A stretch of 64,000 bases of DNA from an uncultured Pelagibacteraceae bacterium (lineage in GTDB: Bacteria > Pseudomonadota > Alphaproteobacteria > Pelagibacterales > AG-422-B15). The notes beneath the pieces were generated by a model that did no database searches, was not told the origin of the DNA, and saw only the letters and a list, made by a program, of their open reading frames with translations. A program made the position numbers and the translations under genes. The stretch spans positions 24,395 through 88,394 of the forward strand of contig CABZHO010000002.1 of the NCBI GenBank assembly GCA_902525595.1, read 5' to 3'. This document shows positions 4,701 through 53,825 of this stretch, piece by piece; position 1 is the first letter of the stretch, and each line of letters opens with the position of its first letter.

Positions 4701-6071
4701 ATGGAACCTGCAACACAATCAGAATTTGATGAAGTGCTTAATCGTCATCATAATATTCAATACGTAGACGCAATATTTACAGACCTTTGTGGTTATGTGA
4801 GGGGAAAAAGATTTCCAGTGTTAGAGGCAGATAAAATTTTTTCAGATGGTGTATTGTTACCGTTTTCAGCATTTTATTTGGATGTTCTTGGTGGCGTAAC
4901 AAACACGATGAATCTTGGTTGGACAGACGGAGATCCTGATGGTGTTTTAATACCCATTAAAAATTCCATTAAGCTCGTTCCTTGGGACAGTAAAGTTCTT
5001 CAAGTATTAATTTCTATGAGAAAAGATCAGGAAAAATGGGGTGTAATAGAAAATCCGGCGGAAGTTGATCCAAGAAATATTCTAGAAAAAGTAATGAATA
5101 AATTTAAAGGCACGGGTTTAAATCCAGTAGTAGCTTTTGAATTAGAGTTTTATTTGTTGGATAAGAAAAGAAATAAGGAAGGCAAGCCAGTTCCTGCATT
5201 AGGTGCGAGTAAAACTCATGTATATGGCATTCCTGATCTTGATATGTTTGGAGACTTATTTAATGAAATTAATGAAAACTGTAAAATCCAAGATATACCT
5301 GCAACAACAGCCTCAAGCGAATTTGCTGCGGGCCAATATGAAATTAATTTAAAGCATACTAGCGACCTGCTTAAAGCAGCGGATGATGCTGCAATGTTAA
5401 GAAGAATAATAAAAGAAACAACTGCGAAGCATGGATTTGAGGCAACATTTATGGCAAAGCCATTTCTTGAGGAGACGGGAAATGGAATGCACCTTCATAT
5501 TTCAGTATACGATGATGATGGAAAAAATATATTTGCAACCAAGAATCGTTACGGAAATGATAAGTTAAAAAATGCGTTAGCAGGTTTCCAAGAAACTTTT
5601 TATGACTCATTTCCAATATTTATTCCAAATAGAAATGGTTACAGAAGAATACAAACTAGAAATTTTGTTCCCGTTAATAAAAGTTGGTCTTGGAATCGAA
5701 GGGATGTTTCATTAAGAATACCTGCTGGATCAGATAGCGCAAAAAGAATAGAACATCGGGTAGCATCAGCTGATGCAAATCCATATCTCGTTTTAGCATG
5801 CATACTATCTGGACTTCACTATGGGCTTACAAAAAAATTATTACCAATAGACCAAGTAAGTTTTGATAATACTGAAGGTGCTGATAAGACTGCTGATCCT
5901 GAAATGCCAAAAAATATGGAGTCCGCATTAAATCGTTTTAAAGATTCAAAAATTTTATCAAAGTATTTAGGAAAAGAATATCTTGATTTATATGTATCCG
6001 CTAAAGAAGGTGAATTTGAACATATGGATAACAGTTTCATACCCTCAGAAGAATATGAGTTTTATTTATAG
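4701..6071 (+). CDS. Glutamine synthetase family protein (probable gamma-glutamyl-amine ligase, PuuA/GmaS-like)
   Basis: 456 aa. GS catalytic blocks FELEFYL, GNGMHLHISV, NRRDVSLRIP and RIEHRVASADANPYL. Confidence 0.8.
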   Translation: MEPATQSEFDEVLNRHHNIQYVDAIFTDLCGYVRGKRFPVLEADKIFSDGVLLPFSAFYLDVLGGVTNTMNLGWTDGDPDGVLIPIKNSIKLVPWDSKVLQVLISMRKDQEKWGVIENPAEVDPRNILEKVMNKFKGTGLNPVVAFELEFYLLDKKRNKEGKPVPALGASKTHVYGIPDLDMFGDLFNEINENCKIQDIPATTASSEFAAGQYEINLKHTSDLLKAADDAAMLRRIIKETTAKHGFEATFMAKPFLEETGNGMHLHISVYDDDGKNIFATKNRYGNDKLKNALAGFQETFYDSFPIFIPNRNGYRRIQTRNFVPVNKSWSWNRRDVSLRIPAGSDSAKRIEHRVASADANPYLVLACILSGLHYGLTKKLLPIDQVSFDNTEGADKTADPEMPKNMESALNRFKDSKILSKYLGKEYLDLYVSAKEGEFEHMDNSFIPSEEYEFYL

Positions 6072-47630: not shown

Positions 47631-49430
47631 ATGTCTGGTATTAAAAATATTAGAAATTTCTCTATTATCGCGCATATTGATCATGGAAAATCTACATTAG
47701 CGGACAGACTAATACAATTTTGTGGTGGACTCTCTGAACGTGAAATGAAGTCACAAGTACTTGACTCAATGGATATTGAAAGAGAACGTGGCATCACCAT
47801 TAAAGCGCAAACTGTACAACTAAAATATCGAGCTAAAGATGGTGAAGTTTATACTTTAAATATTATTGATACCCCAGGACATGTTGATTTTAGTTACGAG
47901 GTAAACCGGTCTCTTTCTGCTTGCGAAGGATCACTCTTAGTAGTCGATGCAAGTCAAGGTGTCGAAGCTCAAACGTTAGCAAATTTATACCAAGCTGTAG
48001 AAAATGATCATGTGATAATACCCGTATTAAATAAAATAGATTTACCTGCCTCTGATCCTGAAAGAGTTAAAAATCAAATAGAAGATATTTTAGGAATTGA
48101 TACAAGTAATGTGCTTGAAATTTCTGCAAAGTCAGGAATTGGTATCGAGGCTGTCTTAGAAACCATTGTAAAAGAATTACCTTCACCAATAGGTGATGAA
48201 AATAAACAATTAAAAGCAATGTTGGTTGATAGTTGGTATGATGCTTATTTGGGCGTGGTAATTTTAGTTCGTGTCATTGATGGAATTTTGAAAAAAGGGA
48301 TGGAGGTTCGTTTTCATCAAACAAATACTAAACATCTGATAGAAAGAATTGGCTGTTTTACTCCAAAAATGATTGATAACAAACAAATTAATACCGGAGA
48401 ATTAGGGTTTGTTACAGCGGCAATAAAAGAGGTAGCTCAAACTAAAGTAGGAGATACAATTTTACTAGCAAACGACAAACAAACTGATCCCCTTCCAGGT
48501 TTCAAGCCGAGTCAGCCTGTAGTATTTTGCGGTTTATTTCCAACAAATGCAGCGGACTTTAAATTTCTGAAAGACGCATTAGCAAAATTAAAACTTAATG
48601 ACTCAAGTTTTCATTTTGAGCAAGAAACCTCCGCTGCTCTTGGAATGGGTTTTAGATGTGGTTTCCTTGGATTATTACATCTAGAAATTATTGTAGAAAG
48701 ACTAGATCGTGAATTCAATTTAGATTTAATAACTACAGCCCCAAGTGTTATTTATAATTTAGTTTTAAATGAGGGTAGCTCACTTGAGTTGCACAACCCA
48801 GCAGATATGCCAGAAGTAATGAAGATTAAAAGTATTTCTGAGCCTTGGATTAAAGCAACAATAATTTGCCCTGAGGAATATCTTGGAAGCATTATTTCAC
48901 TTTGTGAAGATAAGAGAGGTAAGCAAACAGAGCTATCTTATTCCGGATCAAGAGTGATTTTAAATTATAAGTTACCATTGAATGAGATTGTTTTTGACTT
49001 TTATGATAGATTGAAATCAATCTCCAGTGGGTATGCAAGTTTTGATTATGAAATTGATGAATATATTGAAAGTGATTTAGTGCGATTAAGTATTCTTGTG
49101 AATGATGAGTCAGTTGATGCTTTATCAATAATCGTGCATCGAAGCTTTTCTGAAAAGAAGGGAAGAGCAGTCTGTGAAAAACTAAAAGAACTAATTCCCC
49201 GTCATCAGTTTCATATTCCAATTCAGGCAGCAATTGGTGGTAAAATTATTGCTCGTGAAACTGTAAGAGGATATCGTAAAAATGTTATCGATAGAATACA
49301 TGGTGGTGGAGCGACTGATCGAAAAAGAAAGTTACTGGATAAGCAGAAAAAAGGAAAACAAAGATTAAGAACTTATGGCAAGGTTGATATTCCTCAAGAA
49401 GCCTTCATAGCTGCTTTGAAAGTCGAATAG
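47631..49430 (+). CDS. lepA: Elongation factor 4
   Basis: 599 aa. G-domain [18 protein letters not shown] and the LepA-specific C-terminus. Confidence 0.95.
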
Positions 49431-49520
49431 GGAAAGGTGGCCGAGTGGTTGAAGGCGCACGCTTGGAAAGCGTGTATGCGGGTGACCGTATCGTGGGTTC
49501 GAATCCCATCCTTTCCGCCA
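49431..49520 (+). tRNA. tRNA-Ser (anticodon GGA)
   Basis: 90 nt, hand-folded. Acceptor stem GGAAAGG/CCTTTCC, anticodon loop TTGGAAA, long variable arm, T-loop GGTTCGAATCC, encoded CCA. Starts on the nucleotide after the lepA stop. Confidence 0.9.
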
Positions 49521-49637
49521 ATTATAAGATGCTTGATTATTTTCATGGCTTTAATCAAATTAAAATTACATTTCTTACAGAGAAATTGTCTAGAAAATTT
49601 AAGATACATAATATTTATAATAGGATAAATTAGTGGT

Positions 49638-50279
49638 ATGAGACTATATAGAAAAATAATTAGAGAGTTATTTAGAAGCAAAATAACAAAAAAATTCATT
49701 AATTCATCTCAGTATTGGGAAGATAGATATTATTACGGAGGTAATTCTGGAAGTGGATCATATTATAAGAATGCAGCTGAAAAGGCTGATTACCTAAATG
49801 CCAAAATAGATCAATTCGATATAGATACCATAGTAGACATTGGGTGTGGTGATGGTAATAATTTGAAACTCTTCAAGATTCAAAATTATTATGGTTTTGA
49901 TGTGAGTGAGACAATTATATTTCAAAATAAAAAAGAGTTTAAACAAGATCGGAGTAAACAATTTTTAATAATAGACAAAAATTTTGATGAAAAATTATCT
50001 AGTATTAGAAATCAAGAAAATATAAAAAAAATAATTTGTGTTAGCTTTGATGTTATCGGACATTTAGTAGAAGATGAGATCTATGATAATCATTTAAAAA
50101 GTTTTGATTTAGTAAAGCCTGATTATCTAATAATATCTAACTTTGATGTAGAAACAGAATATGATTTATCAGTTCCACATATTAAGGGACGAAATTATTC
50201 TAGAGACTTATTAAATAAAGGTTGGAAATTAGTTGATGTTCATCCCAAAAATAATGATCTGAAACTTTTTAAAAAGTAA
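49638..50279 (+). CDS. Class I SAM-dependent methyltransferase
   Basis: 213 aa with the [10 protein letters not shown] motif I. Very AT-rich coding sequence. Confidence 0.6.
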
Positions 50280-50285
50280 TTTTTT

Positions 50286-52322
50286 CTACTGACTTAAAAA
50301 ATCAATAACTTCTTCTCTTTTTTCTCTTCTTGCTTCATCAAGAGGCGTTGCACCCCATCGATCACGAACATTGAGAGGATGACCATGTGAAACTAAATAC
50401 TTAACTGCTTGCAAACTTCCCTCAGCAGCCGCAAGGTGTAAGGACGTTCGAGAGTCGTAATCTCCAGCATGAACAGGAACTCCTTTAGCAACCAATTGTC
50501 TTAAACCATTAACATCATTTTCAGCTGCAGCAAAAAGCAATTCGATTACCATTAATTCATTATCAAAGGATACCATTTCATCAGTTATTCCATCTGGCTC
50601 TGCTACCAAATGAATAGGCTCTGTATACTCAATGTCTAATTTGTTAAATTCGTCAATAATTTCTTGATGATCATTATTTCTTGCGTCAGAAATTGGATAG
50701 CCTCCCCATCGATCAGGAATTGGTTTTACTCCGTGGCTTAATAAAAACTTAACTACTTCTAATTGTCCCTCTGCAGAAGCTAAATGAAGAGGTGTTCTAA
50801 TATCATAATCACCAGCTTCTAAATCTCTTTGCTGACTTACAAGACGTTCAAGGGTTCTAACATCGCCATTACTGGCAGCCCAGATTGCTTCTCCACAACT
50901 ATTAGCTCGCCATCTTGCAATTGGAAGTTTGGGATCAATTCTGTCAGTATCAGTCATAGTTCCATCGAAAGCATGCACCAGATATTTTTGAGTAATTTTT
51001 CTTGCAACATCAATACCACGCACACTATTGCCAACTAAATCCAGTCTAGGAGAAAAAATACAGATCCCCATTAGCTGCGGTACTATAAGAAGTATTCCCC
51101 CACCGACACCACTTTTTGATGGCAAGCCAATTTCTTGAAAGAACTGACCGCTGCTATTATACATTCCTGCTGTTTGGACAACGGGAAGTACGTTACGAAC
51201 AGTTTTTTGGCTCATAACTCGATCTTGAGTAATTGGACAGACGCCACCATTGGCTAATGTTGCTGCGGCCATCGCAACATCTTTTCCTGTCATTTCTAAT
51301 GAGCAAATACTAAAGTAAACTTTCAAAGCATTTGTGACTGCAGGTTCTACGTAAAAATCATATTCATATTGACTGTCTTCATGAATATCATCGGGCAATA
51401 AAGACTCTGAGTAGGGAATATTACCTGTGGCCATTAGCAAGAAACCTGTTGCTATATTATTGTAGCCTTTGAAATTTTCTTGGCGAGCCATTGTCTTATT
51501 AAATCTAGGCAAGTTAACACCAGAAGTTTCGTCTTTATTCCAACCAATTATTCTTCCGAATTGCTCTCTTATGTACTGGAGCCGATCATTTGTTGAGTCT
51601 TTTGGGTTAATTAAACCAGTAGTCATTATTGCTCCTGCGTTTACCATTGGATTAAAGGGAACTTTGTTATTAGGTGACAAGCTACTACCTCCCATACCTT
51701 TTACCATAAGTGTGAGGTCATCAAACTGCCGACCAGAAGGTTCCACTCCCACATGTCGATTAACTTTTTCTAATCCAAGATTTTCAATTGCAAATGAATA
51801 ATTAAAAGGTTTACACATTGACTGAATTGAAAAATCTACATTCGTATCACCTCGTTGATAAATTTGTCCATCAGTAGTAACAACAGCAATTCCAAATTGT
51901 TCTGGATCCACTTCTGCGAGCGGTGGTATATAACGAGCTAAGTCACCTGATCTATTTGGAAGAACTTCATCATATATTTTATCCAAGTTTCGTGAAAAGT
52001 CCCTGAAGTCTGGCACTGCAAGCTCTCCTCGAAGAGCTTTTTCAGCAAGCAATCCACCTGTTCTTGTGAATGACATAAATTCTTCAAAATCTATTTGCTC
52101 ACCATGCTTTTCTAATTTCTCAAAGAGGCTTTTTAGACGATAGTCCAGAGAACTTAATCCTGCATCAAATAAAGCTTGTTTAAATTGAGTTTTATTAATT
52201 GTGTCTTGGCCATTTTCACACAATGAATAAAATAAGTTTGCCTCTCTTGGTGGACCTTGCGCTTTAAGCCTATCCAATTGGGAAACTGACTTTTCTTTTT
52301 TTATTTGTTCTACGTCACCCAT
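50286..52322 (-). CDS. Glutaminase with eukaryotic GLS-type architecture (EF-hand-like N-domain, glutaminase core, two ankyrin modules)
   Basis: 678 aa. Catalytic SxxK (QSMCKP), NPMVNAGAI, TLANGGVCPIT and GLPSKSGVGGGI. C-terminal DYD.RT.LHLA.AEG...VK.L...DRWG..P.DEA occurs twice. Confidence 0.85.
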   Translation of the reverse strand: MGDVEQIKKEKSVSQLDRLKAQGPPREANLFYSLCENGQDTINKTQFKQALFDAGLSSLDYRLKSLFEKLEKHGEQIDFEEFMSFTRTGGLLAEKALRGELAVPDFRDFSRNLDKIYDEVLPNRSGDLARYIPPLAEVDPEQFGIAVVTTDGQIYQRGDTNVDFSIQSMCKPFNYSFAIENLGLEKVNRHVGVEPSGRQFDDLTLMVKGMGGSSLSPNNKVPFNPMVNAGAIMTTGLINPKDSTNDRLQYIREQFGRIIGWNKDETSGVNLPRFNKTMARQENFKGYNNIATGFLLMATGNIPYSESLLPDDIHEDSQYEYDFYVEPAVTNALKVYFSICSLEMTGKDVAMAAATLANGGVCPITQDRVMSQKTVRNVLPVVQTAGMYNSSGQFFQEIGLPSKSGVGGGILLIVPQLMGICIFSPRLDLVGNSVRGIDVARKITQKYLVHAFDGTMTDTDRIDPKLPIARWRANSCGEAIWAASNGDVRTLERLVSQQRDLEAGDYDIRTPLHLASAEGQLEVVKFLLSHGVKPIPDRWGGYPISDARNNDHQEIIDEFNKLDIEYTEPIHLVAEPDGITDEMVSFDNELMVIELLFAAAENDVNGLRQLVAKGVPVHAGDYDSRTSLHLAAAEGSLQAVKYLVSHGHPLNVRDRWGATPLDEARREKREEVIDFLSQ

Positions 52323-52414
52323 AAATTCTTTGTTAAATAGTAAAAAATTATTAAATTTTTGTAGATTATTAGAACAAATATACGAAATATTTCAAGTATA
52401 TTCAAAAGGTTGAA

Positions 52415-52579
52415 CTAAAGACTGCCAGTTATCAGACCAATCATTCCAAGCAAGAGCCATAGGACCAGCATAGTACGCTCATTAAATCTACGCTTACTCT
52501 CAATTTTTTTTGTTTGCTTATAGATTACAGAGGATAACAGCAAGACAAGGATAATTAAGTACGCAATTGTAAACGCCAT
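52415..52579 (-). CDS. Hypothetical 54-aa two-TM protein (below the ORF-track cutoff)
   Basis: ATG...TAG ORF, MAFTIAYLIILVLLLSSVIYKQTKK...MLVLWLLLGMIGLITGSL. Two hydrophobic helices separated by a basic loop. No homology can be assessed. Confidence 0.3.
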   Translation of the reverse strand: MAFTIAYLIILVLLLSSVIYKQTKKIESKRRFNERTMLVLWLLLGMIGLITGSL

Positions 52580-52625
52580 ACAAATCATTCTAACAATTAA
52601 GGTGTGATTGTATATACTTATCCAA

Positions 52626-53825
52626 ATGAAAATGTTTAGACATTCCTCTACAGTATTAGTTATAGTTGGTGGCTGTATATTGCTGCTGGTTTCATTTGGT
52701 ATACGTCATTCCTCGGGCCTTTATCTCATTCCAATTTCAGAACACATTCAGACAGGTAGAGAGGTATTTGGATTTGCAATCGCTATTCAGTTTTTAATGA
52801 TAGGAATTGGATCGCCAATATTTGGAGCAATCGCAGACAAATATGGCTCATCAGTCGCCGGATTGTATGGAGTTATTTTCTTTCTGATTGGTCTATACAT
52901 GATGTCTCTTGTTGATGGAACTTTTTTATTAATTCTATCTCAAATTATTTTTGGCTTTGGTTGCGCAGGGTGCGGTACTGCAGTTATTTTGGGAGCAGTC
53001 GGTAAAGCAGTAACGGGTAAAAATCAAACCCTTGCACTTGGAGTGGTCATGGCTGCTGGCTCACTTGGACAGTTTTTAATTGTTCCATTAGCAGGAATAA
53101 TGATTGAATTGAGTGATTGGCAGAGATCAATTACTTATTTGTGTTTCATTTCACTAATTATGATTTTGTTTGCGGTCACCTTAACAACTAAATCATTTAA
53201 ATCAGGAAATGACGATAAAACTGCCCAATCGCTGTCCTCTGTTCTCAACGAAGCTTTTATAAATAAAAGTTACGTTCTTTTAACAGCTGGCTTTTTTGTT
53301 TGTGGTTTTCATGTTTCTTTTGTTGCCACACACCTACCAGCTTATCTTGACGATTTATCATTACCTCTATGGATTGGATCATGGTCATTGGCCCTGATTG
53401 GGTTATTTAATGTTTTTGGAACATTATACTTTGGCTATTTAGGTGATACTAAATCAAAGAAAAATTTGTTAGTTATTCTTTATTCATTAAGAGCACTACT
53501 TTTCTTAATTTTTATTTTCTTACCTAAAACTGAAGTTACTGTCCTTATTTTTGCTGCGCTACTAGGCATTCTTTGGCTTTCAACAGTACCTCTCACAAGT
53601 GGTATAATTTCCGTTATTTTTGGCTCTAAGTATATGTCTATGCTTTATGGATTTGCCTTTTTATCTCACCAAGTAGGGTCTTTTATGGGGTCATGGTTTG
53701 GAGGCCGACTTTATGATTTTTATGGGTCGTATGAAGTAATGTGGTGGGCATGCGTGTTCTTAGGATTTGCTTCTGCTGTCATGCATTTCCCAATAAATGA
53801 GAAACCAATAGCTAAAAAAATTTAA
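52626..53825 (+). CDS. MFS transporter
   Basis: About 12 TM helices. I prefer the ATG at 52626 (MKMFRH) to the TTG at 52608. Confidence 0.75.
   Translation: MKMFRHSSTVLVIVGGCILLLVSFGIRHSSGLYLIPISEHIQTGREVFGFAIAIQFLMIGIGSPIFGAIADKYGSSVAGLYGVIFFLIGLYMMSLVDGTFLLILSQIIFGFGCAGCGTAVILGAVGKAVTGKNQTLALGVVMAAGSLGQFLIVPLAGIMIELSDWQRSITYLCFISLIMILFAVTLTTKSFKSGNDDKTAQSLSSVLNEAFINKSYVLLTAGFFVCGFHVSFVATHLPAYLDDLSLPLWIGSWSLALIGLFNVFGTLYFGYLGDTKSKKNLLVILYSLRALLFLIFIFLPKTEVTVLIFAALLGILWLSTVPLTSGIISVIFGSKYMSMLYGFAFLSHQVGSFMGSWFGGRLYDFYGSYEVMWWACVFLGFASAVMHFPINEKPIAKKI

Follow-up and report, generated by a model that had tools for sequence, protein, structure and literature searches.

Gene and domain layout of the glutaminase locus

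The gene analyzed here lies on the minus strand of a 64,000-nucleotide stretch of contig CABZHO010000002.1 (hereafter, the window) from an uncultured Pelagibacteraceae bacterium of the SAR11 order. It is a complete CDS at 50286..52322 (-), identified from the ORF list, Pfam and NCBIfam matches and dN/dS, with an ATG start and a stop codon at 50286-50288 (minus strand), and encodes a 678-aa GLS-type glutaminase. The open reading frame was already recognized in an earlier note on this DNA, and all peptides quoted there are present in the translation. The protein scores 266.8 bits against the NCBIfam family TIGR03814 'glutaminase A' (cut-off 255.4), and hence passes the equivalog whole-protein threshold. 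Comparison with the four closest relatives gives a dN/dS of 0.03-0.05 over the whole length; the gene is under purifying selection.

The domain layout of the protein has several characteristic features: (i) an N-terminal EF-hand-like helical domain (residues 24-120; 51963..52253, minus strand), defined by PF17959, the alignment with human kidney-type glutaminase (KGA) and model superposition, with the Pfam EF-hand_14 match at residues 28-104 (E 1.9e-6, 28.6 bits versus a curated cut-off of 23.7); (ii) a serine-beta-lactamase-like glutaminase core (residues 126-452; 50967..51947, minus strand), matched over exactly these residues by Pfam Glutaminase PF04960 (E 1.5e-88) and mapped residue by residue onto KGA; (iii) a first three-repeat ankyrin (ANK) module (residues 474-566; 50625..50903, minus strand), delimited by the end of the KGA alignment at query residue 567 and by model superposition; and (iv) a second, duplicated three-repeat ANK module (residues 590-678; 50289..50555, minus strand), recognized by comparison of the two modules and preceded by an ordered linker of 23 residues (567-589). 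Ankyrin families of Pfam match the protein with E-values from 1e-12 to 6e-21.

The tRNA-Ser(GGA) gene (49431..49520, plus strand; ARAGORN and Rfam) lies beside the 3' end of the glutaminase gene. The intergenic region upstream of the CDS (52323..52607, minus strand), outlined with the help of the blastn similarity limits in L001 and L002, is the presumed promoter location. A promoter and terminator scan gave 14 promoter-like sites versus 13.1 expected and 1 terminator versus 1.8 expected, and is uninformative since these counts are at chance level. Searches for regulatory RNAs with Rfam, using the gathering threshold for the window as a whole and a limit of E<=1 for 49400-52700, gave no match other than the tRNA.

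Comparison with human kidney-type glutaminase

The phmmer search against PDB sequences gave human KGA (chain 8gwr_B) as the best match (E 5e-96), with a single-stretch alignment of query residues 24-567 to KGA residues 137-647; the respective scores are 7e-90 for GLS2 and 9e-43 for E. coli YbaS, of which the core alone is matched. The N-terminal domain is 30% identical to KGA (residues 137-233 of the latter), the core 42.5%, and the linker together with the first ANK module 36%. The AlphaFold single-chain model (pLDDT 86, pTM 0.86) has 8gwr_B (TM 0.88 over 541 columns) and 5uqe_B as its best Foldseek matches and superposes on near-full-length KGA, including both the EF-hand-like domain and an ANK module. 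The human GLS peptides given in the earlier note agree with the PDB sequence, and its claim of a likeness spanning all three domains is borne out by Pfam, phmmer and structural comparison. Since this similarity is significant both statistically and structurally across all three domains, the SAR11 protein is a bacterial relative of the animal enzyme, as had been suggested.

The domain order is common to the SAR11 protein, human KGA (GLS; PDB 5UQE, 8GWR) and GLS2 (8SZL), as are the catalytic residues and the ANK motifs DYDxRTxLHxAxAEG and DRWxxTPxDEA. In contrast to KGA and GLS2, the SAR11 protein lacks a mitochondrial presequence and a long N-terminal extension, only 23 residues preceding its N-terminal domain; a bacterial protein would not be expected to have such a presequence. 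It differs from KGA by three core insertions (210-220, 264-269 and 309-328), and from both human enzymes by the extra ANK module and by a per-domain identity of only 30-43%. The catalytic core and its residues are also shared with E. coli GlsA/YbaS and GlsB/YneH (PDB 1U60) and B. subtilis YbgJ (1MKI); however, enzymes of this type consist of the core only, at about 310 aa, whereas the SAR11 protein has three further domains. The size contrast drawn in the earlier note holds, because E. coli GlsA and GlsB comprise 310 and 308 aa, respectively.

One point on the C-terminal region needs correction. The ANK region is real, but the peptide quoted for it, DYDSRTSLHLAAAEG...DRWGATPLDEA, comes from the second module, for which KGA has no equivalent. 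The positional counterpart of the single KGA/GLS2 module is the first one, with the motifs DYDIRTPLHLASAEG and DRWGGYPISDA and 41.6% identity to the KGA module (551-647); each of the two modules is about 42% identical to it. The two modules share 47% identity (E 3e-25), and both are found throughout the bacterial clade described below. The tandem ANK model fits continuous ANK solenoids poorly (TMq 0.38-0.45, rmsd 8-14 A), and the ANK-only model (pTM 0.58) contains two separate modules, not a single solenoid.

The catalytic and substrate residues Y131, S168, K171, N228, E282, Y336, Y388 and V406 correspond to Y249, S286, K289, N335, E381, Y414, Y466 and V484 of KGA, and in the alignment all eight positions are invariant in 20 of 20 bacterial-clade sequences. 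Judging from these residues, the protein would be a cytoplasmic L-glutaminase converting glutamine and water to glutamate and NH4+, presumably by the Ser168/Lys171/Tyr388 chemistry operating in GLS and GlsA. It would probably form the tetramer conserved among glutaminases. The activation-loop region (residues 197-222; 51657..51734, minus strand), recognized from the KGA alignment and low model confidence, carries an insertion of about 11 residues, and residues 198-222 are the sole long low-confidence segment of the model (pLDDT <50). The insertion and the predicted disorder, together with the presence of two protein-interaction-type ANK modules and an additional N-terminal domain, might suit a catalytically dead scaffold that has kept the fold and acts as a regulator or binding protein via its ANK and EF-hand-like domains. 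Such a role is highly improbable, however, given the invariance of the eight catalytic and substrate residues, the glutaminase A equivalog score above the cut-off, and the low dN/dS along the whole protein.

The residue equivalent to KGA F322, at the BPTES site, is T in the SAR11 protein. EF-hand loop 1 reads ENGQDTINKTQF, while the alignment has the canonical DxDxDGxVxxxD in L050-L053, P0121 and P0122; both EF-hand loops of the SAR11 protein are degenerate, and Ca2+ binding is therefore not expected from its sequence. In the activation loop of the mammalian enzyme, R317 and K320 bind phosphate (PMC13142944). These residues are replaced by Q199 and D202, respectively, whereas F318 is kept as F200; the position equivalent to K320 is D in 18 of the 20 bacterial-clade sequences. 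The filament interface of the mammalian enzyme is formed by F355, F373, F378, D412 and Q416 (PMC13142944), and only one of the five equivalents (L248, F274, A279, K334 and S338) is conserved. Since both the phosphate-binding and the filament residues are replaced, the enzyme would not be switched on by phosphate or by filament formation, unlike mammalian GAC, and the phosphate activation suggested earlier is not supported at the sequence level. Control is probably exerted via the flexible activation loop and the N-terminal and double-ANK domains. The more general suggestion that the extra domains imply regulation or oligomerization is plausible.

Distribution, phylogeny and origin

A homolog search returned 4101 matches, of which the best 120 are all 60-95% identical to the query and share its architecture. 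At least 58 species-level genomes encode the architecture, and 39 of these bear a Pelagibacter-type label; thousands of ocean metagenome proteins have it as well. Beyond SAR11, it was found in Prochlorococcus, Synechococcus, a Planctomycetota MAG, a Desulfobulbaceae MAG and other Pseudomonadota, and MAGs labelled 'Coxiellaceae' also carry the glutaminase gene. A search with the Filomicrobium homolog matched almost entirely metagenome proteins. The N-core-ANK-ANK layout is the same in 'glutaminase [Pelagibacterales bacterium SAG-MED29]' and other SAR11 entries (60-95% identical to the window protein) and in 'glutaminase A [Synechococcus sp. RSCCF101]' (WP_150882463.1), although the latter is only 39% identical. 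GLS-type glutaminases of giant viruses (GVMAG) and protists share the N-core-ANK layout with SAR11 at 30-38% identity, but mostly have one ANK module and form a separate clade. Two whole glutaminase units in tandem make up many long proteins that are protist-like or metagenomic, and some bacterial-clade variants are fused to a globin or HATPase_c_2 domain. Relatives of about 800 aa combine a canonical EF-hand loop with a globin-like domain.

The architecture, which the earlier note had regarded as unusual for a bacterium, is thus spread over several bacterial phyla, and NCBI already annotates this protein family as "glutaminase". Within this large family of already annotated bacterial proteins, the SAR11 protein is unexceptional, with modest extra interest. 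A literature search combining glutaminase, SAR11 and ankyrin gave no match, and the papers retrieved for Pelagibacter and glutaminase appeared unrelated, as judged by title; glutaminase is not mentioned in a preprint on 135 Pelagibacter genomes (bioRxiv 10.64898/2026.04.03.716430).

The phylogeny of the glutaminase core was reconstructed as a neighbor-joining (NJ) distance tree from 287 columns with 200 bootstraps, E. coli GlsA and GlsB being the only outgroup. GLS-type sequences are separated from the E. coli enzymes with a bootstrap of 100 and fall into a bacterial clade (94-100), which includes Pelagibacterales, Rhodospirillaceae and Filomicrobium, and a eukaryote-dominated clade (78) of vertebrate, rhizarian and giant-virus sequences with poor internal resolution. 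The SAR11 protein is inside the bacterial clade, beside the eukaryote-dominated one and not nested within it. Synechococcus WP_150882463.1 falls in the eukaryote-dominated clade, apart from SAR11, and thus bacteria and eukaryotes are not cleanly reciprocally monophyletic.

These observations bear on the inter-domain transfer raised in the earlier note, by which SAR11 would have recently acquired the gene from an animal or another eukaryote together with its kidney-type architecture. Such a transfer might be suspected because the closest PDB matches are human KGA and GLS2 rather than bacterial GlsA, the short ANK motifs are strikingly close to the human ones, and the double-ANK layout also occurs in a eukaryotic transcriptome protein (EukProt GEMP01011060). 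Nevertheless, we consider it extremely unlikely: the per-domain identity to KGA is only 30-43%, the protein belongs to the well-supported bacterial clade apart from vertebrate, rhizarian and giant-virus sequences, the family is present in several bacterial phyla and in two deep SAR11 subclades that share the suf-GLS-glnA locus, and the GC content of the gene (38%) is near that of the window (33%).

The opposite direction is the more credible of the two, yet still rather doubtful: the bacterial, partly alphaproteobacterial clade may represent the lineage that gave eukaryotes their mitochondrial GLS via the proto-mitochondrial endosymbiont. A bacterial origin of the multidomain architecture has reportedly been proposed already, by Pasquali and colleagues in 2017. 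The sister position of the clade with Pelagibacterales, Rhodospirillaceae and Filomicrobium relative to the eukaryote-dominated clade agrees with such an origin, and the canonical Ca2+-type EF-hand loop of its deep members, degenerate in animals, fits an older bacterial state. On the other hand, the bacterial clade mixes phyla and horizontal transfer is evident in it (Prochlorococcus, the 'Coxiellaceae' MAGs and the Desulfobulbaceae MAG), which makes the gene a poor marker of organismal descent; moreover, the direction of transfer is not derivable from the NJ tree, and giant viruses, which also bear the gene, could be vectors.

Genomic context and probable exchange at tRNA loci

The glutaminase gene is located between the suf operon and glnA in 29 SAR11 loci, and five more loci are truncated by contig ends. 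Divergence of the glutaminase correlates with that of GlnA in SAR11 (r=0.95). Most SAR11 keep the gene stably at this position, between the suf operon and glnA. Common occurrence and vertical inheritance of the three-domain architecture across alphaproteobacteria had been named in the earlier note as an outcome that would count against its proposal, and for the SAR11 order this outcome is largely borne out. Genes for Amt and glutamine synthetase (GS)-like proteins are neighbors of the glutaminase gene in L042, L043, L016 and L053. The recurrence of the gene beside glnA, GS-like and amt genes in other lineages suggests a physiological role in the glutamine/glutamate/ammonium balance.

The lineage of the window departs from this pattern: here, the gene is located at a tRNA-Ser hotspot and has been exchanged between divergent genomes. 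The distance from tRNA-Ser to the glutaminase stop codon is 765 nt in the window versus about 20 nt in L001, L002 and L003. Most of it is a 743-bp insertion (49525..50267, plus strand) that is absent from the otherwise syntenic L003, the blastn alignment breaking at window 49524/50268 and L003 5168/5166. A 213-aa ORF of this insertion (49638-50279) has weak similarity to SAM-methyltransferases (Pfam E 4e-5, below the curated cut-offs). Glutaminase copies that are 94-97% identical occur in three settings, represented by the window and L003, by L001 and L002, and by L045. Between L001 and the window, the glutaminases are 97% identical at the amino acid level while LepA is only 67% identical; LepA of L003 is 98% identical. 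Nucleotide similarity stops within about 15 nt and about 120 nt of the CDS borders; on the upstream side, L001 is similar up to window 52444 and L002 up to 52440, so that only about 120 nt of this region go along with the gene.

In L001 and L002, the gene is found between tRNA-Ser and a truncated tRNA-Ser copy (87-93% identity over 48-70 nt), with a spacing of 2354 and 2353 nt, respectively. Partial tRNA-Pro copies, 100% identical over 46-51 nt, bracket the gene in L005 and L007. On SAG contigs of Prochlorococcus, the gene is flanked by two partial copies of tRNA-Pro that are 100% identical and form part of a repeat array of this kind; these contigs were confirmed to be cyanobacterial by an ArsJ-associated GAPDH that is 83% identical to that of P. 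marinus. A tRNA-Glu gene adjoins the glutaminase gene in L045, L015 and L055, and no partial-tRNA repeats were found at these loci. The window and L003 have no distal partial-tRNA repeat. No tyrosine recombinase, integrase or other mobile-lifestyle genes were detected by Pfam in the ORFs flanking the gene by 4-6 kb per side in the window, L001, L004, L005, L007, L022 and L045. Among viruses, the scan for phage carriage found copies in giant-virus MAGs only (30-38% identity); phage-like contigs had no close copy.

Islands at tRNA-Pro(tgg) and partial-tRNA scars have been described in Prochlorococcus (bioRxiv 10.1101/2020.12.28.424599), and tRNA-linked mobile regions in Pelagibacter (PMC11876622). 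Similarly to the cargo of tycheposon-type tRNA-anchored islands of Prochlorococcus and co-occurring bacteria, the glutaminase gene adjoins a tRNA, and its partial-tRNA bracketing in L001, L002, L005 and L007 resembles integrated elements or their remnants. In contrast to such islands, no tyrosine recombinase or other hallmark gene was detected beside any copy, and the window copy lacks the distal repeat.

The tRNA-Ser(GGA) gene is likely an integration or recombination hotspot for the glutaminase copy of this lineage. We slightly favor a non-vertical history for this copy, in which a single-gene cassette arrived, or replaced a resident copy, at tRNA-Ser(GGA) via tRNA-targeting integrative elements or recombination, and the same route brought a related copy into the Prochlorococcus islands. 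The near-identical copies in three settings with similarity ending at the gene borders, the disparity between glutaminase and LepA in L001, the tRNA-Ser and tRNA-Pro bracketing, and the published islands and mobile regions all point in this direction. Against it stand the missing distal repeat in the window and L003, the repeat-free tRNA-Glu loci, and the lack of an integrase within the flanks sampled. Since the window has neither a partial-tRNA repeat nor a nearby recombinase, the case for mobility of its copy draws on other genomes. In addition, the lepA...tRNA-Ser-GLS order is common to the window and the distant L001, and thus homologous recombination at a conserved locus fits as well as site-specific integration.

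Taken as a whole, the protein is, with high confidence, a functional cytoplasmic GLS-type glutaminase of the bacterial double-ANK clade, probably controlled by means other than phosphate or filament formation, whose gene is a stable suf-glnA resident in most SAR11 and is exchanged at tRNA-Ser in the lineage of the window. More speculatively, it may be a niche-adaptive single-gene cassette moved by tRNA-targeting elements or recombination among abundant ocean oligotrophs (divergent SAR11, Prochlorococcus and 'Coxiellaceae'-labelled MAGs), in which the tandem ANK modules form an intramolecular pair replacing the inter-subunit ANK dimer of animals, yielding a phosphate-independent, differently regulated enzyme.

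The GLS-like architecture is not rare in bacteria, and its presence here bears no sign of animal gene flow. Exchange between SAR11 and Prochlorococcus at tRNA hotspots, across lineages and phyla, is clearly marked by this gene. The bacterial clade provides natural variants for the study of GLS regulation: replacements of K320 by D and of R317 by Q, duplication of the ANK module, canonical EF-hand loops in some members, and fusions to globin or HATPase_c_2. Such variants could show how the N-terminal and ANK domains act in the human enzymes, which are relevant to cancer. SAR11, probably the most abundant marine bacterial group, uses a "eukaryotic-type" glutaminase, usually encoded beside glnA, and not the short GlsA, and this use is relevant to models of glutamine, glutamate and ammonium cycling in nitrogen-poor oceans.

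Domain organization, active site and ankyrin duplication

The glutaminase open reading frame comprises 678 codons from an ATG start (50286-52322, reverse strand), and every peptide quoted in the earlier note was found in its translation. Pfam assigned Glutaminase PF04960 to residues 126-452 (E 1.5e-88), EF-hand_14 PF17959, a model built on the glutaminase N-terminal domain, to residues 28-104 (E 1.9e-6; 28.6 bits versus a 23.7-bit cut-off), and ankyrin families to two blocks in the C-terminal part. The protein also passed TIGR03814, the NCBIfam equivalog for glutaminase A (266.8 bits versus a cut-off of 255.4). Its top matches among PDB sequences were human kidney-type glutaminase (KGA) and the liver-type enzyme GLS2 (E 7e-90). 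A single continuous alignment joined residues 24-567 to KGA residues 137-647 (8gwr_B, E 5e-96), and E. coli YbaS aligned in the core alone (9e-43). Identity to KGA, whose 137-647 sequence was rebuilt from the printed PDB alignment and verified by its length of 511 and landmark residues, is 30% in the N-terminal domain, 42.5% in the core, and 36% in the linker and first ankyrin module. E. coli GlsA (310 aa) and GlsB (308 aa) have the short length of about 300 aa ascribed to ordinary bacterial enzymes. Taken together, the family matches, the PDB alignments and the GlsA sizes confirm the observation of the earlier note: the three-domain GLS-like architecture is far above chance, and homology to GLS is sound.

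All eight catalytic and substrate residues of KGA (Y249, S286, K289, N335, E381, Y414, Y466, and V484) are kept, as Y131, S168, K171, N228, E282, Y336, Y388, and V406, respectively, and are invariant in 20/20 bacterial-clade sequences. The dN/dS of the gene against its four closest relatives is 0.03-0.05. This conservation and selection make it almost certain that the protein is an active glutaminase. Phosphate activation, which had been listed among its possible modes of regulation, is contradicted at the residue level. In the mammalian mechanism, phosphate is bound by R317 and K320 of the activation loop, and filament contacts are made by F355, F373, F378, D412, and Q416 (PMC13142944, a 2026 review). 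F318 is kept, R317 is replaced by Q199, and K320 is replaced by D202, an aspartate shared by 18/20 bacterial-clade sequences; the filament positions read L, F, A, K, and S, with one of five conserved. Given these substitutions, the mammalian phosphate and filament switch is not expected. Relative to KGA, insertions occupy residues 210-220 (directly after the activation loop), 264-269, and 309-328.

The KGA alignment ends at residue 567, and a further 111 residues remain. Within these, positions 590-678 duplicate the three-repeat ankyrin module 474-566 (47% identity, E 3e-25), a real but secondary finding that had been missed. The human module is 41.6% and 42.7% identical to the two copies, which are 46.5% identical to each other. 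The ankyrin motif that had been compared with human GLS sits in the second copy, beyond the KGA-aligned part. The AlphaFold2 model of the full protein, built from an input alignment of 32 sequences, is of high confidence (mean pLDDT 86.2, pTM 0.86); its sole long disordered stretch is the activation-loop region, 198-222. The top Foldseek match is near-full-length KGA 8gwr_B (E 1.8e-36, target-normalised TM 0.88; rmsd 4.1 A over 541 columns on superposition), and 5uqe_B has a target-normalised TM of 0.85. When residues 465-678 were modelled separately, the modules were well formed (pLDDT 84; pTM 0.58). Continuous ankyrin solenoids of comparable length are a poor match to this model (TMq 0.38-0.45, rmsd 8-14 A), and the modules are therefore predicted to be two separate units with a linker between them rather than a single long stack.

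Distribution and phylogeny of the family

The protein is nothing out of the ordinary: it belongs to a GLS-type family that is widespread in bacteria, common in SAR11, and already annotated. A word-indexed search yielded 4101 proteins at E<=1e-20, the best 120 of which are 60-95% identical to it and share its Pfam content; several of the 90%-identity clusters contain 100-550 member sequences, and 'glutaminase [Pelagibacterales bacterium SAG-MED29]' and 'glutaminase [Candidatus Pelagibacter sp.]' are among the NCBI names of the matches. Scanning a single genome for each GTDB species with query-derived peptide patterns, an approach hence biased to close relatives, gave 58 true loci: 39 with Pelagibacteraceae, Pelagibacter or Pelagibacterales labels, 5 from 'uncultured Alphaproteobacteria', 5 from Prochlorococcus single-cell genomes, 3 from 'Coxiella' or 'Coxiellaceae' MAGs, 2 from Pseudomonadota or Proteobacteria MAGs, and one each from Rhodospirillaceae, Filomicrobium, Desulfobulbaceae, and a 72%-GC bacterium.

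An exhaustive search of 50%-identity representatives yielded 1577 clusters at E<=1e-30, and domain layouts of the top 150 representatives were scored with HMMs built from the SAR11 family. The N-core-ANK-ANK layout (EF-hand-like domain, core and two ankyrin modules) recurs in P0103, P0121, P0122, P0148, P0154 ('glutaminase A [Synechococcus sp. RSCCF101]', a complete genome), P0168, P0198, P0224 (named as a Planctomycetota MAG protein), and P0237 (named as a eukaryotic transcript). Many others have the KGA-like N-core-ANK layout. By source name, P0183 is a vertebrate GLS and P0194 a vertebrate GLS2, and the P0238 cluster contains a rhizarian (Mataza) sequence. Long proteins with two whole N-core-ANK units in tandem also occur, as in many of P0124-P0142 and other 1000-1300-aa representatives, and some representatives of ~620 aa have two cores only; these probably represent fusions of eukaryotic or metagenomic origin, or else tandem genes that were merged. 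Viral copies of the GLS type, at 30-38% identity to the window protein, were found on 48 contigs from IMG/VR (L062-L109), mostly giant-virus MAGs (GVMAG), and P0171, a 'Glutaminase [seawater metagenome]' encoded on a contig of 340 kb, may also be viral.

A neighbour-joining tree was computed from the cores of 72 sequences over 287 columns, with Kimura-corrected distances and 200 bootstraps; in it, every multidomain protein splits from E. coli GlsA/GlsB with bootstrap 100. The bacterial clade comprises P0122, then a high-GC group (L050-L053, P0121), then all SAR11-type proteins, with bootstraps of 100 and 94. The second clade (78) contains vertebrate, rhizarian, giant-virus-like, and most unnamed single-ANK sequences, together with Synechococcus RSCCF101. 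The window protein pairs with L045 (100) and next with the Prochlorococcus copy (100), outside the animal and other eukaryotic sequences; the proposed gene transfer from animals, or any recent eukaryote-to-bacterium transfer, is therefore unsupported. The direction of an ancient transfer is not given by this distance tree, because naming is limited and the second clade is poorly resolved. Pasquali et al., in JBC in 2017, reportedly proposed bacterial ancestors as the source of the multidomain architecture.

Genomic contexts and exchange between lineages

Inheritance of the glutaminase is vertical or horizontal by lineage, and the gene is a stable resident in most SAR11. Its dominant flank order is sufB-sufC-sufD-sufS-NifU-(FeS_assembly_P)-SufA, glutaminase, convergent glnA, and EamA, as judged from ORF families at 29 loci; 5 further loci are truncated by contig ends. 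This context spans both deep SAR11 glutaminase subclades (L012 and L047). At the 23 loci with all genes, pairwise identities of the glutaminase and the adjacent GlnA correlate strongly (Pearson 0.95), versus 0.39 for glutaminase and SufS and 0.45 for GlnA and SufS.

The subclade of the window departs from this pattern. Its glutaminases, 94-97% identical, occur in three genomic settings: pheT-lepA-tRNA-Ser-GLS-MFS-LysE in the window and L003 (Pelagibacteraceae AG-909-F08), a 25%-GC glycosyltransferase/methyltransferase island in L001 and L002, and glutathione peroxidase-GLS-tRNA-Glu-recJ-glpX in L045. DNA similarity to L001, L002, and L045 reaches only ~15 nt beyond the stop codon and no more than 120 nt ahead of the start. 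The window is SAR11-like and shares its downstream genes with L003; their DNA identity is 94.5% over pheT-lepA-tRNA-Ser, left of the tRNA, and 89.6% right of it. LepA is 98% identical in L003, and the LepA fragment of L001 is 67% identical despite a glutaminase 97% identical. The dS of the window glutaminase is nonetheless higher against L003 (0.84) than against L001 (0.51), which, with the drop in identity across the tRNA, suggests recombination at this locus.

In L001 (4700-8148) and L002 (1095-3525), the glutaminase forms a 2.35-kb single-gene unit reaching from an intact tRNA-Ser(GGA) to a truncated copy (3' 48-70 nt, 87-93% identical; start-to-start spacing 2354 and 2353 nt). In L001, another truncated copy follows 1 kb further along, and these repeats look like serial integration scars at a tRNA. 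No recombinase was found in any sampled flank, and neither the window nor L003 has a distal tRNA repeat. The window's own copy may therefore owe its place equally to site-specific integration or to homologous recombination at this lepA/tRNA-Ser locus. Between tRNA-Ser and the glutaminase, the window carries an insertion of 743 bp (49525-50267) that L003, otherwise syntenic, lacks; the forward-strand ORF of the insertion (49638-50279, 213 aa, with sub-threshold SAM-methyltransferase similarity only) is convergent with the glutaminase, the two stops lying 6 nt apart.

On their sequence, the Prochlorococcus contigs are truly cyanobacterial. An 'ArsJ-associated GAPDH' in the flank has 83% identity to a P. 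marinus protein from a contig of 1.07 Mb, and neighbours include DUF3764 and PstS-like genes. The glutaminase, 81% identical to the window's at the amino acid level, and a small ORF are bracketed by two 100%-identical partial copies (46-51 nt) of a nearby tRNA-Pro(tgg). These belong to arrays downstream of the intact tRNA in the single-cell contigs L005 (524-12955; two copies at 100%, a third at 91%) and L007 (759-11924; three at 100%), and the island also carries ArsJ-associated GAPDH and MFS, PstS-like proteins, PLD, Vsr, AIPR, T5orf172, and DUF3764. In Prochlorococcus islands, this same pattern has been described for integrative elements and what remains of them (bioRxiv 10.1101/2020.12.28.424599). 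No integrase was found in the 14 kb of sequence covered. Mobile regions linked to tRNAs have been reported in Pelagibacter (PMC11876622), and another gene family offers a precedent for exchange between Pelagibacter and Prochlorococcus. The tRNA-linked mobility, with exchange between SAR11 lineages and Prochlorococcus, is a real but secondary finding. The glutaminases of the 'Coxiella'/'Coxiellaceae' MAGs L016, L022, and L025 (GC 41-43%), 69-72% identical to the window's, nest within the SAR11 radiation and have flanks of much higher GC, so that either the gene was acquired horizontally from SAR11-like donors or the bins carry wrong labels.

Nitrogen neighbours and possible control of the glutaminase

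Linkage to glnA or an ammonium transporter gene is likewise a real but secondary finding. Besides the convergent glnA of the main SAR11 context (e.g., L012:8039-9445), an ammonium transporter and a GS-like gene adjoin the glutaminase in L042 (4812-5792 and 8172-9455), L043, L016 (3567-4808), and L053 (4500-5855), whose hosts are other Pseudomonadota and a high-GC bacterium. This neighbourhood, the intact active site and the short N-terminus, in which no export signal was found, suggest that the enzyme is cytoplasmic and works at the glutamine/glutamate/ammonium node. No canonical glnA stands beside the glutaminase in the window. The 456-aa ORF at 4701-6071 (forward strand) is 22-28% identical to the GlnA proteins flanking the gene in other SAR11 loci, which makes it a distant GS-family paralogue. 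No Rfam element other than the tRNA was detected in the window or the gene region, and a promoter and terminator scan near the gene gave nothing convincing.

Neither the window protein nor human GLS keeps an intact EF-hand-like loop: in each, both loops are degenerate. In L050-L053, P0121, and P0122, bacterial relatives that branch deeply, the first loop follows the canonical Ca2+-type pattern DxDxDGxVxxxD, which is degenerate in SAR11. Relatives of ~800 aa with an extra N-terminal extension include L050 (3205-5457; 750 aa), L051 (5566-8016), L052 (5581-8001), P0121, P0450, P0453, and P0458. Globin-like N-termini are present in P0450, P0453, and P0458 (precomputed PF01152) and, as a weak Protoglobin match (2e-5), in P0121; no globin family matched the extensions of L050-L052. 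P0122 (784 aa) carries a HATPase_c_2 (RsbW-like kinase) domain C-terminal to its N-core-ANK-ANK layout (E 2.7e-20). Judging from these motifs, relatives with a globin-like extension or a canonical loop may be gas- or Ca2+-sensing glutaminases. A glutaminase beside glutamine synthetase would run a futile cycle unless controlled, and the need for such control would give a reason both for the extra domains and for the sensor-like fusions in relatives.
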